This document shows, piece by piece, positions 24,522 through 40,303 of a stretch of DNA of 64,000 bases; the first letter of the stretch is position 1; each line of letters starts with the position of its first letter. The notes beneath the pieces are model-generated. The model was not told the DNA's origin. It did no database searches and saw only the letters and a program-made list of their open reading frames with translations. The DNA lies in the NCBI RefSeq assembly GCF_016026235.1, contig NZ_CP065613.1; one strand, 5' to 3'. This stretch comes from Escherichia coli. Lineage in GTDB: Bacteria > Pseudomonadota > Gammaproteobacteria > Enterobacterales > Enterobacteriaceae. Position numbers and translations under genes: made by a program.

Positions 24522-25816
24522 CCTGAGGAATCCCCAGAAAACAAGACAGGCATAGTGAGATGTGATCTAATTGATTGTGCTAACAATTTCAAGGAGATCA
24601 CCACTATGCCTGCACGTTCATTATGCCAAAATTTCCTTAACAACATACTGGCCCCTTTGCATCTTTACCGTCAAAAATCACTGATTGACGCAACTAATGC
24701 TGTAATAAATGGCGCTTCCCTCACACTTACCAGTATCGGGCGTCATTTAACCGGTACGGCATCAGTTAAAAACAAAATAAAGCGGGTGGATCGACTGTTG
24801 GGGAATCGACATTTGCAAAATGAGGTTTCCACCATTTTTCAGCGAATTACCCAAAAGATTACGCGGGGAATGTCTCGTGTTGTGATACTCATTGACTGGA
24901 GTGCTTATCATGCCTCTCGTTTTCAGCTTTTGCGGGCAAGCCTGGCATGTGACGGGCGTTCTTTACCGTTGATGAGTTGTGTCGTTCCATCATCACAGAC
25001 AGCGAATGCAGATGTACATGAGCGTTTTCTGGAATCGCTTGCTGAGTGCTTTTCCCCCGGGACTGATGTCATTGTTATTACAGATGCCGGTTTTCAGGGG
25101 CGATGGTTCCAACAGCTCCGCTCCCGTGGCTGGACCTATATTTGCCGGGTACTGGGCAATCATTATTACAATGTTGGTAATGGCTGGGAAAAGGTGTCGG
25201 ACTCAGGCACAAAAGCATCAACGACAGCAATTTATTTAGGTGAAGGCCTGCTGGGTCGAGATAAAAATGCACAACATGAAGGGCATTTTTATCTTTATAA
25301 AAGTAAGCCTAAAGGTCGTAGATTTAAACGCTCGAAGGAAAGAGCAACCAGACCATCGGTGACGGCTAAAGCTCGTACTGCCGGGAAATCACCATGGTTT
25401 ATTTTCACAAACAGTACTGAGTTCTCGCCAAAACAGGTAATGAAATTATACAGCCGTAGAATGCAAATTGAGCAAAATTTCAGGGATGAAAAAAATCCTC
25501 GCTGGGGATTTGGACTACGGTTTGGTGCCAGTCATTCATCCGGGCGGGTCACGGTATTGAGTCTGATCGCAACATTAGCCAGTATCATTATGTGGTTAAG
25601 CGGTTTCAGCCTGGAAAACAAAGGGATACATCATAAATATCAGGCAAATACAGTGAAGCACAGGCGAGTCATCTCGTTATTAAAACTGGCGGAGAATGTG
25701 ATTCGACATTCTCCACTCATACTAAACACACTGTCACTTGACGCAGGGCTGAAAGTTCTACAGCAACGGTATACCAATATGATAATGGTTTACTAAATTT
25801 TCTGGGGATCCCTCAG
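24522..25816 (+). mobile_element. IS4-family, IS10-like insertion sequence (copy 1, intact), about 1295 bp
   Basis: Imperfect terminal inverted repeats CCTGAGGAATCCCCAGAAAA / TTTTCTGGGGATCCCTCAG; flanked by 9-bp direct repeat GCGAGTTCC (24513-24521 and 25817-25825); single transposase ORF. Boundaries +/-1 bp. Confidence 0.85.
24606..25796 (+). CDS. IS10-like DDE transposase
   Basis: MPARSLCQNFLNNILAPLHLYRQKSL...; shares motifs with IS10 transposase recalled from memory (IKRVDRLLGNRHL, RRMQIEQNFRDEK, YQANTVKHRRVIS). Confidence 0.8.
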   Translation: MPARSLCQNFLNNILAPLHLYRQKSLIDATNAVINGASLTLTSIGRHLTGTASVKNKIKRVDRLLGNRHLQNEVSTIFQRITQKITRGMSRVVILIDWSAYHASRFQLLRASLACDGRSLPLMSCVVPSSQTANADVHERFLESLAECFSPGTDVIVITDAGFQGRWFQQLRSRGWTYICRVLGNHYYNVGNGWEKVSDSGTKASTTAIYLGEGLLGRDKNAQHEGHFYLYKSKPKGRRFKRSKERATRPSVTAKARTAGKSPWFIFTNSTEFSPKQVMKLYSRRMQIEQNFRDEKNPRWGFGLRFGASHSSGRVTVLSLIATLASIIMWLSGFSLENKGIHHKYQANTVKHRRVISLLKLAENVIRHSPLILNTLSLDAGLKVLQQRYTNMIMVY

Positions 25817-26316
25817 GCGAGTTCCCCGCGCCAGCGGGGATAAACCACCATATAACCCGTTATCTCTTTCTCAAGTTTTTATATTAGCAGTACTTGTAAT
25901 AAGCAACATATCCACGTAACACCTCATGTTCAAAATAGTTCTCCATGCCAGAGAAGTTCACAATTATCGATACAAAAAATTAAGTTTAATCAAAGTATTA
26001 TTTGTATGATTCTTAAATCATTAAGAAATTTTAATATATTATTTTTTTAATATTAATTAATGCCTGTTAATTTTTGCTTAAGTATAACAGTGTATTTTTT
26101 AAGCTTGTTATTCATTGATTAAGTAATAAATCTGGAAGTTTGTCTTTGTTTTGAGGCTAATGAGTGGTTTTACATAACCGCCTCTATACGCTGTTGATGA
26201 ATAGTTCTTATGAATAAAGATATTCAGTTCATACTTTAAGTGAAAATTGATAAAGTGCGATTCGTATTGTCTTTTATTCTAAAGACATCGAGTGTAGTTA
26301 ATATTCCTTGTAAAAA

Positions 26317-26378
26317 CAGGGATAAACCGAACTAGTTAAAGTTTTTATTATGTTCCCCGCGTCAGCGGGGATAACCAT
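26317..26378 (+). CRISPR. degenerate CRISPR remnant (partial repeat, short spacer, degenerate repeat)
   Basis: CAGGGATAAACCG (3' half of the repeat) at 26317-26329, about 20-bp spacer, then ATGTTCCCCGCGTCAGCGGGGATAACCAT at about 26350-26378; preceded by about 470 bp of AT-rich leader-like sequence. Confidence 0.65.
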
Positions 26379-26423
26379 TCAGGTATGTTCAGGCCGGGCT
26401 GTTTCCCGCCCGGCCTTCCTCAC

Positions 26424-39105: not shown

Positions 39106-39368
39106 ATATTGCCGGATAAATTAAACGCCTCTGTCAGAAATGATGGGGGCGTTTTTATTTTGCGAGCAGCATTCCTGATTTTAAACGTGAACGCCGCTGG
39201 AAGAATTATCAGGTATAGAATGGCGTCGGGTGCTTGAGGCTGTCTGGCGTTAAGCATTCGCGAGGTTCCAGATGGACAAAAGCCCCAGGCGATATTTCTA
39301 TCAACCTGAGGCTCGCGTTCGAACGTAGCAATTCGAATGTTAGTCTCTTCTTTGCAGGGAGGCAAGAC

Positions 39369-39521
39369 ATGCTGACAAAATATGCCCTTGTGGCAATCAT
39401 AGTGCTGTGTTTTACAGTACTGGGATTCACGCTGATGGTAGGCGACTCGTTGTGTGAGTTGAGTATCAGAGAACGTGGTATGGAGTTTAAGGCTGTTCTC
39501 GCTTACGAATCGAAGAAGTAG
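39369..39521 (+). CDS. Hok/Gef-family type I toxin-like small membrane protein, 50 aa
   Basis: [51 protein letters not shown]-terminal TM helix plus Hok-family signature SLCEL-IR...A-LAYES-K (compare Hok ...[25 protein letters not shown], from memory); GGGAGG Shine-Dalgarno 6 nt upstream. Confidence 0.75.
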
Positions 39522-39542
39522 CCACCACGCGGGGGTAAAACC

Positions 39543-40303
39543 CCTGAGGAATCCCCAGAAAACAAGACAGGCATAGTGAGATGTGATCTAATTGATTGTG
39601 CTAACAATTTCAAGGAGATCACCACTATGCCTGCACGTTCATTATGCCAAAATTTCCTTAACAATATACTGGCCCCTTTGCATCTTTACCGTCAAAAATC
39701 ACTGATTGACGCAACTAATGCTGTAATAAATGGCGCTTCCCTCACACTTACCAGTATCGGGCGTCATTTAACCGGTACGGCATCAGTTAAAAACAAAATA
39801 AAGCGGGTGGATCGACTGTTGGGGAATCGACATTTGCAAAATGAGGTTTCCACCATTTTTCAGCGAATTACCCAAAAGATTACGCGGGGAATGTCTCGTG
39901 TTGTGATACTCATTGACTGGAGTGCTTATCATGCCTCTCGTTTTCAGCTTTTGCGGGCAAGCCTGGCATGTGACGGGCGTTCTTTACCGTTGATGAGTTG
40001 TGTCGTTCCATCATCACAGACAGCGAATGCAGATGTACATGAGCGTTTTCTGGAATCGCTTGCTGAGTGCTTTTCCCCCGGGACTGATGTCATTGTTATT
40101 ACAGATGCCGGTTTTCAGGGGCGATGGTTCCAACAGCTCCGCTCCCGTGGCTGGACCTATATTTGCCGGGTACTGGGCAATCATTATTACAATGTTGGTA
40201 ATGGCTGGGAAAAGGTGTCGGACTCAGGCACAAAAGCATCAACGACAGCAATTTATTTAGGTGAAGGCCTGCTGGGTCGAGATAAAAATGCACAACATGA
40301 AGG
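39543..40303 (+). mobile_element. IS10-like insertion sequence (copy 3), left 761 bp only, truncated by IS4
   Basis: Begins CCTGAGGAATCCCCAGAAAACAAGACAGG 22 bp after the Hok-like stop; transposase frame (MPARSL... from 39627) is identical to copy 1 through ...KNAQHEG, then IS4 begins at 40304. Confidence 0.85.

Follow-up and report, generated by a model that had tools for sequence, protein, structure and literature searches.

Target preference of ISEc60 and the states of its three copies within 16 kb of an Escherichia coli genome

The locus considered here raises a simple question: how did three copies of one insertion sequence (IS), each in a different state, come to lie within 16 kb of one another? 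The window, meaning the whole stretch of DNA that was analysed, covers 64,000 nucleotides (nt) of Escherichia coli (assembly GCF_016026235.1, contig NZ_CP065613.1). A first-pass annotation, made from the sequence alone, described the copies as an IS10-like element, took their clustering to suggest local hopping and marked the stretch as a hotspot of IS-driven change. The element is ISEc60. Taken as a whole, the best explanation, which is very probably correct, is that ISEc60 is a target-specific element and that its copies preserve traces of one deletion, one inversion and the entry of another IS. ISEc60 is a catalogued element, and rearrangements of this kind are familiar from IS biology and amount to ordinary genome decay. 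The host is an IS-rich, non-K-12 E. coli, and the backbone of the stretch follows the usual order of the species: barA-relA-pyrG-eno-queE-CRISPR2-ygcE...ygcN-queD-cysJIH-hok, where CRISPR denotes clustered regularly interspaced short palindromic repeats.

Several genomes serve for comparison. Window positions 23082-41798 are base-for-base identical to the reverse complement of a locus (L017) of GCA_900449985.1, contig UGFA01000002.1, which was matched through an exact-protein look-up of the 238-aa truncated transposase. Statements on copies beyond the window, namely the census of the stop-codon allele, the inversion partner and the cas operon, are read from that assembly, at its loci L019 (nupC/fryC), L040 (cas operon) and L015/L025 (motA, contig UGFA01000005.1). 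The unrelated strain Z1323CEC0012 provides an uninterrupted reference of ~23.7 kb (L001). FDAARGOS_943 (same region, L002; nupC/fryC, L043) is a relative with flanks 99.9% identical and a gene order collinear with the usual one, and GCA_031665325.1 is a relative having copies 1 and 2 plus the partner junction of copy 3. Further loci are taken from the plasmid pINV (L004), pINV of CFSAN029787 (L030), the chromosome of GCA_031665585.1 (L006) and fryC of strain VL46 (L044).

The element and its choice of target

Pairwise base-by-base alignment gives near identity among the copies, with two differing bases in total, and by repeat finding and BLAST all three regions align, so that the description of three copies of one element stands. 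Copies 1 and 2 differ once in 1294 nt (IS nt 798, A>T), and copies 1 and 3 differ once in 760 nt (nt 122, C>T, a synonymous third-position change at Asn13). The element is 1294 bp long (CTGAGG...CCTCAG) and is 100% identical across this length to elements labelled by the Prokaryotic Genome Annotation Pipeline (PGAP) as 'IS4-like element ISEc60 family transposase' (WP_001111632.1). With no sequence-level difference between them, the two are the same element; the name comes from the PGAP labels. Identical copies, with an identical 396-aa protein, occur in enteroinvasive E. coli CFSAN029787, RMDEC332 and RMDEC364, VL46 and also FDAARGOS_943. Near-full ISEc60 is present in just 14 of 5426 complete E. 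coli genomes; FDAARGOS_943 carries it at no fewer than 38 places, and at least nine copies are documented in GCA_900449985.1.

Members of the IS4 family are characterised by a D(60-110)D(100-150)E spacing, a Y-(2)-R-(3)-E-(6)-K signature, a single unframeshifted transposase open reading frame (ORF) and a target duplication of about one helical turn (De Palmenaer et al. 2008, PMC2266710). ISEc60 has D97, D160 and E289, invariant in alignment with IS10A and spaced by 63 and 129 residues, the signature YSRRMQIEQNFRDEK at residues 282-296, one 396-aa ORF and a 10-bp duplication. Its transposase scores 360.5 bits against NCBIfam NF033591 (transpos_IS4_2; E = 8.5e-108; cut-off 152 bits). The IS10 subgroup is defined by a length of 1200-1350 bp, 5'-CT ends and a 9-bp direct repeat (PMC2266710, Table 1). 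The 1294 bp of ISEc60 and CTGAGG at both of its ends agree with this definition; the 10-bp duplication does not. The transposase is 35-36% identical in amino acids to IS10A and ISVsa5 across 93% of its length, and its best-named relatives besides ISEc60-like proteins are, by pairwise identity only, IS10A, ISVsa5 (36%) and ISEc29 (32%). Among the first 13 nt of the ends, 12 positions agree between ISEc60 (CTGAGGAATCCCC and CTGAGGGATCCCC) and IS10A (CTGAAGAATCCCC and CTGAAGGATCCCC). The original assessment of the element as IS10-like and yet distinct was therefore sound.

The same annotation had the three states right and the boundaries off by 1 bp, with an element of 1295 bp; the corrected coordinates, including 760 rather than 761 bp for copy 3, are given in Table 1. 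A 1295-bp element with a 9-bp duplication was considered and rejected. At L022, CTGAGG is preceded by G, and at two further sites (L037 and L002) CCTCAG is followed by T; the flanking C/G consequently belong to the target.

The target preference was derived from flanks of ISEc60 copies in other genomes and plasmids. With the element taken as CTGAGG...CCTCAG, all 17 independent sites (17 of 17) show a duplication of exactly 10 bp, and they share a palindromic consensus of approximately CG-GGGAWWWYCC-CG, in which the hyphens enclose the duplicated bases (symmetrised consensus gcGGgGa..tCcCCgc). Many sites are terminator-like hairpins with a GC stem and an AT loop, for example beside the hok and ibs toxin genes, and ISEc60 adjoins hok at three loci. 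IS elements beside chromosomal hok loci are a known pattern in E. coli. Genes are entered where the motif occurs, as in motA, lhr, fryC, ygcU and ygcN. Judged from its flanks, ISEc60 is sharply target-specific and favours GC-stem/AT-loop palindromes of this form. By analogy with IS10 and IS50, it would move by DDE-transposase cut-and-paste, with a 10-bp staggered cut of the target.

A target matrix with symmetrised weights was built from 16 sites, none of them from the window. It places the CRISPR2 site at the terminal repeat R5 third of 62,675 window positions. On the reference L001 (~23,700 positions), the ygcN site at 14018 ranks first (14.4) and the ygcU site at 8822 second (14.0), and these are the breakpoints at copy 2. 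A score of 15.5 is reached by the reconstructed hok hairpin, and one of only 4.2-7.3 by the remaining four CRISPR repeats, because the first two duplicated bases derive from the spacer. By chance, the stretch contained four excellent matches (CRISPR2 R5, ygcU, ygcN and hok), and each of them has been used.

Single sites have also been entered independently in both orientations, which confirms them as hot spots. At CRISPR2 R5, FDAARGOS_943 has the element at the identical position with the identical duplication, reversed end-for-end. Further cases are a fimbrial locus in RMDEC332 and RMDEC364 (a close pair differing there only in orientation), the diverged plasmid loci L034 and L035, and fryC in the unrelated strain VL46. 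Because recombination inside the element cannot change the junction between a flank and an end, each of these cases reflects distinct transpositions or, with lower probability, a flip in two steps.

The cluster is accounted for by the choice of targets, and since all four junction sites are top-scoring motif matches, local hopping is not required. A tendency of ISEc60 to re-insert near its donor is possible but rather unlikely as the reason for the clustering. It would fit the density of the copies: with ~40 copies in 5 Mb, three in 16 kb have a Poisson probability of 3e-4 per window, with ~0.1 such windows expected genome-wide. It would also fit the modest excess of occupied sites, four of the six best being filled while the two best farther sites (61353 and 5977) are empty, and the presence of another copy pair only 6.3 kb apart, at nupC and fryC. 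However, the region was picked for its clustering, which makes these statistics post hoc, and the empty sites may lie where insertion harms. The copy number of ~40 is taken from a relative, and the relative weight of the two explanations is a rough estimate. Moreover, FDAARGOS_943 shares the hok-site copy, which is therefore ancestral; two lineages have acquired insertions at the CRISPR2 site independently and in opposite orientations, so that such sites attract insertions regardless of their neighbourhood; and each junction is a top-ranked motif match. Hopping, as first proposed, is thus not needed for the exact positions, which the targets explain, and the excess of occupied sites is what speaks for some contribution from it. 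There is also room for a contribution from the dispensability of the region. The description as an IS hotspot is supported by the IS1 and IS4 elements in the same stretch and by other IS events here in relatives.

The unoccupied window sites 61353-61362 (15.9) and 5977-5986 (13.6) score as high as occupied ones, and are predicted to be either future insertion sites or places where insertion harms. More generally, the target model (10-bp duplication, CG-GGGAWWWYCC-CG) predicts insertion and rearrangement breakpoints to the base. It also accounts for repeated hits in unrelated strains, which calls for caution where IS positions are used as markers of common descent. In the literature searched, the name ISEc60 occurs in two papers, neither of which deals with the element by its title or abstract, and no published account was found of ISEc60 target preference, its 10-bp duplication, its tandem dimers or the stop-codon allele described below.

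Insertion, deletion and inversion at the three copies

Table 1. Features of the window around the three ISEc60 copies
Feature	Position	Strand	Remarks
CRISPR2 array (queE-ygcE locus): R1-R4, spacers 1-4, first 8 nt of R5 (GAGTTCCC)	24271-24522	+	
Left target duplication GCGAGTTCCC	24513-24522	+	Last 2 nt of spacer 4 and first 8 nt of R5
ISEc60 copy 1, complete, 1294 bp	24523-25816	+	Left end CTGAGGAATCCCCAGAAAA, right end CTGAGGGATCCCCAGAAAA
Transposase gene, intact, 396 aa	24606-25796	+	D97, D160, E289; Y282-R285-E289-K296
Right target duplication, 10 bp, GCGAGTTCCC	25817-25826	+	
Terminal repeat R5 (ends ...AAACCA)	25819-25847	+	Restored by the duplication
IS1, 768 bp, in yqcE	28481-29248	-	9-bp duplication GTTGGTGGA; between copies 1 and 2; InsA/InsB Pfam hits in L017
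ygcU 5' remnant	31158-31587	+	Ends at right inverted repeat of copy 2; last 10 nt GGGCATTCTC, second-best target in reference region
ISEc60 copy 2, full length	31588-32881	-	Both ends intact, no target duplication
TGA replacing Arg239 (AGA) in copy 2	32082-32084	-	Transposase cut to 238 aa, before E289 and YREK
ygcN remnant without 3' end	32882-34057	-	First 10 nt beside the element GGAAATATCC, best target in reference region
hok/sok type I toxin-antitoxin locus	39228-39521	+	sok RNA 39228-39384, hok ORF 39369-39521; 3' hairpin GCGGGGGTAAAACCCCGC, target of copy 3
ISEc60 copy 3, nt 1-760 only	39544-40303	+	T122 allele; junction B of ~126-kb inversion
IS4, 1426 bp	40304-41729	+	No target duplication; within ISEc60 palindrome GATAAAAATGC...GCATTTTTATC; right end at lysS terminator hairpin
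lysS terminator half and lysS	41730-43282	-	Collinear relative has idi here instead

Copy 1 lies in CRISPR2. The array has the features of a type I-E array: 29-nt repeats (GAGTTCCCCGCGCCAGCGGGGATAAACCG) at 24271, 24332, 24393 and 24454, 32-nt spacers, an AT-rich leader and a position between queE and ygcE, where a CRISPR is also annotated in L001 and L002. The copy had been described as intact with a target duplication inside the CRISPR repeat. Its intactness and the flanking duplication stand; the duplication is 10 bp rather than 9, and lies partly in spacer 4 and partly in the repeat. Copy 1 is a simple insertion at the junction of spacer 4 and R5, where the start of the repeat, GAGTTCCCCGCGCC, provides a perfect half-site. 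No record of a CRISPR2 insertion in the orientation seen in the window exists in the complete E. coli genome collection.

Copy 1 separates spacer 4 from its 3' repeat. The practical effect is probably nil, since the cas operon lies ~126 kb away with a split cas3 and a short cas7. In GCA_900449985.1 (L040 7001-12514), two ORFs (378 and 521 aa) are called for cas3, and the ORF called for cas7 has 205 aa and precedes a gap, which suggests that both are pseudogenes and that the operon has decayed. The same split cas3 is found in at least 17 other contigs on record.

Compared with the corresponding array of FDAARGOS_943 (L002 5951-6260), that of the window is shorter by one spacer-repeat unit (spacer CGCCACCCGGAGCGTAAAAAAAATGCCGAGGC), which the relative carries between spacers 1 and 2. 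This spacer also ends in GC and would make a second R5-like target. The reversed CRISPR2 copy of that relative (L002 6264-13111) is interrupted at nt 275-282 by nested elements, namely ISSso6, a member of the IS66 family and another ISSso6. A flip of this copy through recombination of the short terminal repeats was considered and rejected: the A/G difference at position 7 travels with each end, so that the reversal extends over the entire element.

A single ancestral insertion could also have been flipped in place by a longer route, for example the entry of an inverted second copy into the duplicated target and subsequent loss of the first copy by recombination of the 10-bp repeats. Such a flip is an improbable substitute for two independent insertions. 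Position and duplication are identical in the window and FDAARGOS_943, adjoining second insertions do occur (the tandem dimers with a 10-bp spacer in L006, L030 and L044), and one close strain pair differs only in orientation at one site. On the other hand, opposite orientations at shared sites also occur in unrelated lineages and diverged plasmids (L034/L035, VL46 fryC), which makes independent hits common. The ~0.1% divergence and the one-spacer difference between the window and FDAARGOS_943 leave ample time for independent insertions, and no inverted dimer was observed.

The tandem dimers of ISEc60 all contain the same 10-bp spacer, GGGATTTACC, and are found in L030, in L006 (beside a hok gene) and at L044 10808-12112 (fryC). 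This spacer equals the duplication of the pINV copy, and the dimers at the two chromosomal sites are flanked by a different, local 10-bp duplication. From these sequences, the IS-10 bp-IS unit seems to have transposed whole from the plasmid at least twice.

Copy 2 had been reported without a target duplication, and this is borne out: its flanks are two sites that lie far apart in the reference. The duplication is absent because ~5.2 kb is missing beside the copy (L001 8832-14017), comprising the rest of ygcU, ygcS, ygcR, ygcQ, ygcP, ygcO and the 3' end of ygcN. Copy 2 joins the two best target sites of the region, in ygcU and ygcN, and marks this deletion. Since both flanks are the best motif matches of the region, two routes to the deletion come into question: two insertions in the same orientation may have recombined, or the transposase may have made an adjacent deletion that stopped at a preferred site.

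Homologous recombination between separate insertions in ygcU and ygcN, leaving mismatched halves of two duplications, is given an even chance. Both flanks are the two best targets in the 23.7-kb reference, as expected of genuine insertion sites, and nearby ISEc60 copies have recombined elsewhere, both at nupC/fryC in FDAARGOS_943, where duplication halves are swapped, and in the 126-kb inversion described below. Against this, separate insertions in ygcU and ygcN were found in no genome. In FDAARGOS_943 the ygcN site is intact and empty and the ygcU site has been deleted. An adjacent deletion made by the transposase, starting from one insertion, would likewise stop at a preferred site and give the same product. 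FDAARGOS_943 lost overlapping ygc genes through a different, IS1-bounded deletion (ygcW' to ygcO); the ygc cluster is evidently dispensable.

Copies 1 and 2 are inverted with respect to each other and lie 5.7 kb apart. The inverted nupC/fryC pair, 6.3 kb apart, has the same geometry. Its duplication halves are swapped in FDAARGOS_943 (L043) relative to GCA_900449985.1 (L019), which shows that the segment between them has inverted. The segment between copies 1 and 2 has not inverted, and is predicted to be invertible in the way seen for nupC/fryC in the relative.

Copy 3 retains its left part up to IS4, as annotated, and departs abruptly at nt 761, where IS4 starts. Truncation by IS4 insertion alone, as first proposed, does not hold: IS4 has no target duplication, and its other side is the lysS terminator. 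The hok/sok locus beside the copy is identified by sok (Rfam, 106.7 bits) and by Hok (NCBIfam hits and ORF translation). A complete ISEc60 occupies the same hok junction in FDAARGOS_943, which makes the insertion old and ancestral. The second part of the picture lies ~126 kb away on the same contig, where ygfK-ssnA-ygfM-xdhD is followed by an intact ISEc60 without duplication and then by GGGTAAAACCCCGCG-cas3-cse1-cse2-cas7-cas5-cas6e-cas1. The right flank of this xdhD copy overlaps the left flank of copy 3 (...GGGGGTAAAACCC) by duplicated bases. The positions and strands of both loci fit an inversion of the hok-xdhD segment through two inverted ISEc60 copies.

The following order of events is proposed. 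Copy 3 goes back to an old insertion that lay between hok and cas3, in the terminator hairpin of hok/sok. It would then have recombined with an inverted ISEc60 beside xdhD, inverting ~126 kb; the order expected after this step is copy 3, then xanQ...idi, then lysS in the observed orientation. Next, IS4 would have landed in a palindromic IS4 hot spot within copy 3, at nt 750-760. Finally, a deletion that began at the right end of IS4 and reached the lysS terminator would have removed ISEc60 nt 761-1294 together with ~10 kb (idi to xanQ). IS4 insertion followed by adjacent deletion is the simplest account of the lost right part of copy 3.

IS4 prefers targets of the form AAA-N20-TTT, a consensus that a literature search for it as text did not return. 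The same spot in ISEc60 has been hit repeatedly by IS4, in several pINV plasmids, at nt 750-761, in the opposite orientation and with a 12-bp duplication. The IS4 subgroup is characterised by a length of ~1.4 kb, ends of the type -AATR... and duplications of 10-13 bp (PMC2266710); the window copy has 1426 bp and ends TAATGCC...GGCATTA, and is 99.9% identical to the annotated IS4 of L004. The latter has a 12-bp duplication, whereas the window copy has none, as would result from the deletion that followed. The right end of the window copy falls within the lysS terminator hairpin, at the very point where FDAARGOS_943 continues with idi.

Recombination of two inverted IS4 copies, the first within ISEc60 and the second in the lysS-idi interval, was also considered as the cause of truncation; the missing right part of ISEc60 would then lie at the far end of an IS4-bounded inversion. 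Between the window and FDAARGOS_943, the orientation of the lysS side with respect to the cysH side is reversed, and the window IS4 is without a duplication, both of which such an inversion would produce. This possibility was dropped once the partner junction of xdhD, ISEc60 and cas3 had been found on the same contig, and it is now very remote. The inversion between two ISEc60 copies explains the orientation in full; after it, lysS would already lie in the observed orientation ~10 kb past copy 3, and only a deletion remains to be explained. In addition, no IS4-flanked 3' fragment of ISEc60 from GCA_900449985.1 was seen among the ten places listed, from 17 contigs read, for its 118-aa ORF, which is weak evidence.

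Other mobile elements have acted in the same region. The equivalent stretch has an IS1 deletion and the ISSso6/IS66 nest in FDAARGOS_943, and IS1 and IS421 in Z1323CEC0012. In both genomes IS1 occupies other positions in the ygc cluster, and one such copy bounds the ygcW'-ygcO deletion. In FDAARGOS_943, one ISEc60 (L002 25059-26352) directly links the hok hairpin with a degenerate CRISPR1 repeat beside iap, with a right flank (TAGAATTCCC followed by CGCCCCTGCGG) in the same register as at CRISPR2; here the type I-E cas operon has been lost in its entirety, together with the CRISPR1 array. In Z1323CEC0012, IS421 (IS4 family) sits in the same hok hairpin (L001 20680-22016), only 1 bp away from where ISEc60 inserts, and its other side borders on a CRISPR1 repeat; this is a second, independent IS-bounded loss of the cas operon. 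On pINV (L004, ~5760 onward), IS421 abuts the ISEc60 duplication. By these junctions, GGGG-loop-CCCC hairpins attract more than one IS type. At 19598-23054, the window carries a LemA-family gene and two or three TPM-domain genes in place of the ygcG/yqcG of L001, as does FDAARGOS_943; this looks like a variable island unrelated to the IS copies.

Spread of a stop-codon allele

Nucleotide 798 of the element is the first base of codon 239, which reads AGA in copy 1 (25320-25322) and TGA in copy 2 (32084-32082, minus strand). Base-by-base comparison confirms the single-base nonsense change that had been noticed in copy 2. It is not a state peculiar to that copy, as the annotation implied, because T798 is present in at least six copies of GCA_900449985.1: at motA, near an autotransporter gene, in copy 2, at the nupC and fryC sites and at lhr. 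The 238-aa product is encoded at five of these places, and the sixth copy is fused to lhr. Among the eight full-length copies readable in that assembly, A798 is confined to copy 1 and the xdhD/cas3 copy. Since E289 and the YREK residues are missing from the truncated protein, T798 copies, whose ends are intact, would be unable to mobilise themselves. The copy in motA (L015/L025, contig UGFA01000005.1) interrupts this gene, and the strain is probably non-motile as a result, which fits a Shigella-like or enteroinvasive lifestyle.

The distribution of the allele among relatives bears on its origin. The nupC and fryC copies of FDAARGOS_943 and GCA_031665325.1 occupy the same sites with the same duplications and have A798. 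The copy 2 orthologue of GCA_031665325.1 also has A798, with exactly the same deletion junction. The occurrence of three affected copies at sites where relatives have the intact allele points to gene conversion. Re-insertion cannot explain T798 in copy 2, which is without a duplication, and an identical recurrent mutation at nt 798 is implausible. From these comparisons, T798 most likely spread by gene conversion among the copies of this lineage.

An assembly or polishing artefact is a distinctly unlikely source of the repeated stop codon. Two related assemblies show A798 at orthologous sites, and repeats are prone to consensus cross-talk. However, the same assembly resolves its copies singly, with A798 in copy 1 and at xdhD/cas3, T122 in copy 3 and an additional C993T in one T798 copy. 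The substitution of one position in six of at least eight full-length copies is, in our judgement, not a usual long-read error, and homogenisation by short reads is likelier in the relatives than in this assembly.

Several observations weigh against the explanation as a whole. The duplication at the hok site seems to be 11 bp and not 10. Of the six best sites in and near the window, four are filled, where a rough estimate would lead one to expect ~8% genome-wide. The loss of idi-xanQ from GCA_900449985.1 is deduced rather than read directly. Gene conversion rests on the comparison of assemblies, and short-read polishing may have homogenised the copies of the relatives.

CRISPR-Cas erosion and comparison with known elements

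The decay of Shigella-like E. coli genomes through IS elements is well known. The present locus offers a worked case in which CRISPR-Cas is eroded through coincidence of targets: insertion, deletion and inversion follow from the target choice of the element, and selection against immunity need not be invoked. In GCA_900449985.1 the cas operon has been inverted away from hok and cysH. A more far-reaching joint reading, which is speculative and to be regarded as doubtful, takes ISEc60 to be, rather than a generic relative of IS10, a hairpin-homing element that drives the loss or displacement of cas genes, with the 238-aa allele as a possible inhibitor. Under this reading, the preferred palindrome matches the 5' part of the type I-E repeat as well as the hok and ibs terminator hairpins; CRISPR arrays and the hok-cas3 boundary would have been hit repeatedly, and the cas operon lost or displaced in enteroinvasive E. 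coli lineages; and the T798 allele would have overwritten most copies by gene conversion, its N-terminal 238 residues perhaps inhibiting transposition by binding the ends. Independently of this joint reading, the points worth recording are the sharp target motif, the repeated independent hits, including those in CRISPR repeats, and the spread of an inactivating allele among dispersed IS copies.

Among known systems, the closest comparison is with IS10 (IS10R/IS10A of Tn10). Both elements have one ORF, DDE and YREK residues at aligned positions, the same size class and ends of the form CTGA(G/A)G(A/G)ATCCCC, in which the A/G difference at position 7 places GATC in the transposase-distal end only. 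The GATC (Dam) sites of ISEc60 are located at element nt 42, 74, 267, 1043 and 1285 (window 24523-25816), just upstream of the transposase start and, as to the ends, within the right one only (GGGATCC; left end GGAATCC). This layout echoes the methylation control of IS10, by analogy with which ISEc60 may be regulated in a similar way. An Rfam scan of 15000-45000 (E<=0.1) returned only sok and a weak naRNA4, and matched no Rfam family inside ISEc60, the IS10 antisense RNA included. Both elements have a symmetric target preference, that of IS10 being NGCTNAGCN. They differ in that ISEc60 duplicates 10 bp rather than 9 and has a GGGA-loop-TCCC palindrome as its motif.

A second comparison concerns elements that target hairpins. 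IS1397, ISKpn1 and some IS110-family elements insert in repetitive extragenic palindromic (REP) sequences and thus resemble ISEc60 in using short intergenic GC-rich palindromes. Unlike ISEc60, they belong to the families IS3 and IS110 and employ other chemistry; ISEc60, moreover, also enters genes bearing its motif.

The third comparison is with IS231A of Bacillus thuringiensis, an IS4-family element whose target is reportedly of the GGG(N)5CCC type. For its insertion specificity, PMC2266710 cites Hallet et al. 1994. IS231A resembles ISEc60 in its duplications of 10-12 bp and its GGG/CCC-type target. It differs in belonging to another subgroup, in its CAT ends and in its host phylum, so that the likeness between the two is one of target choice and not of descent.

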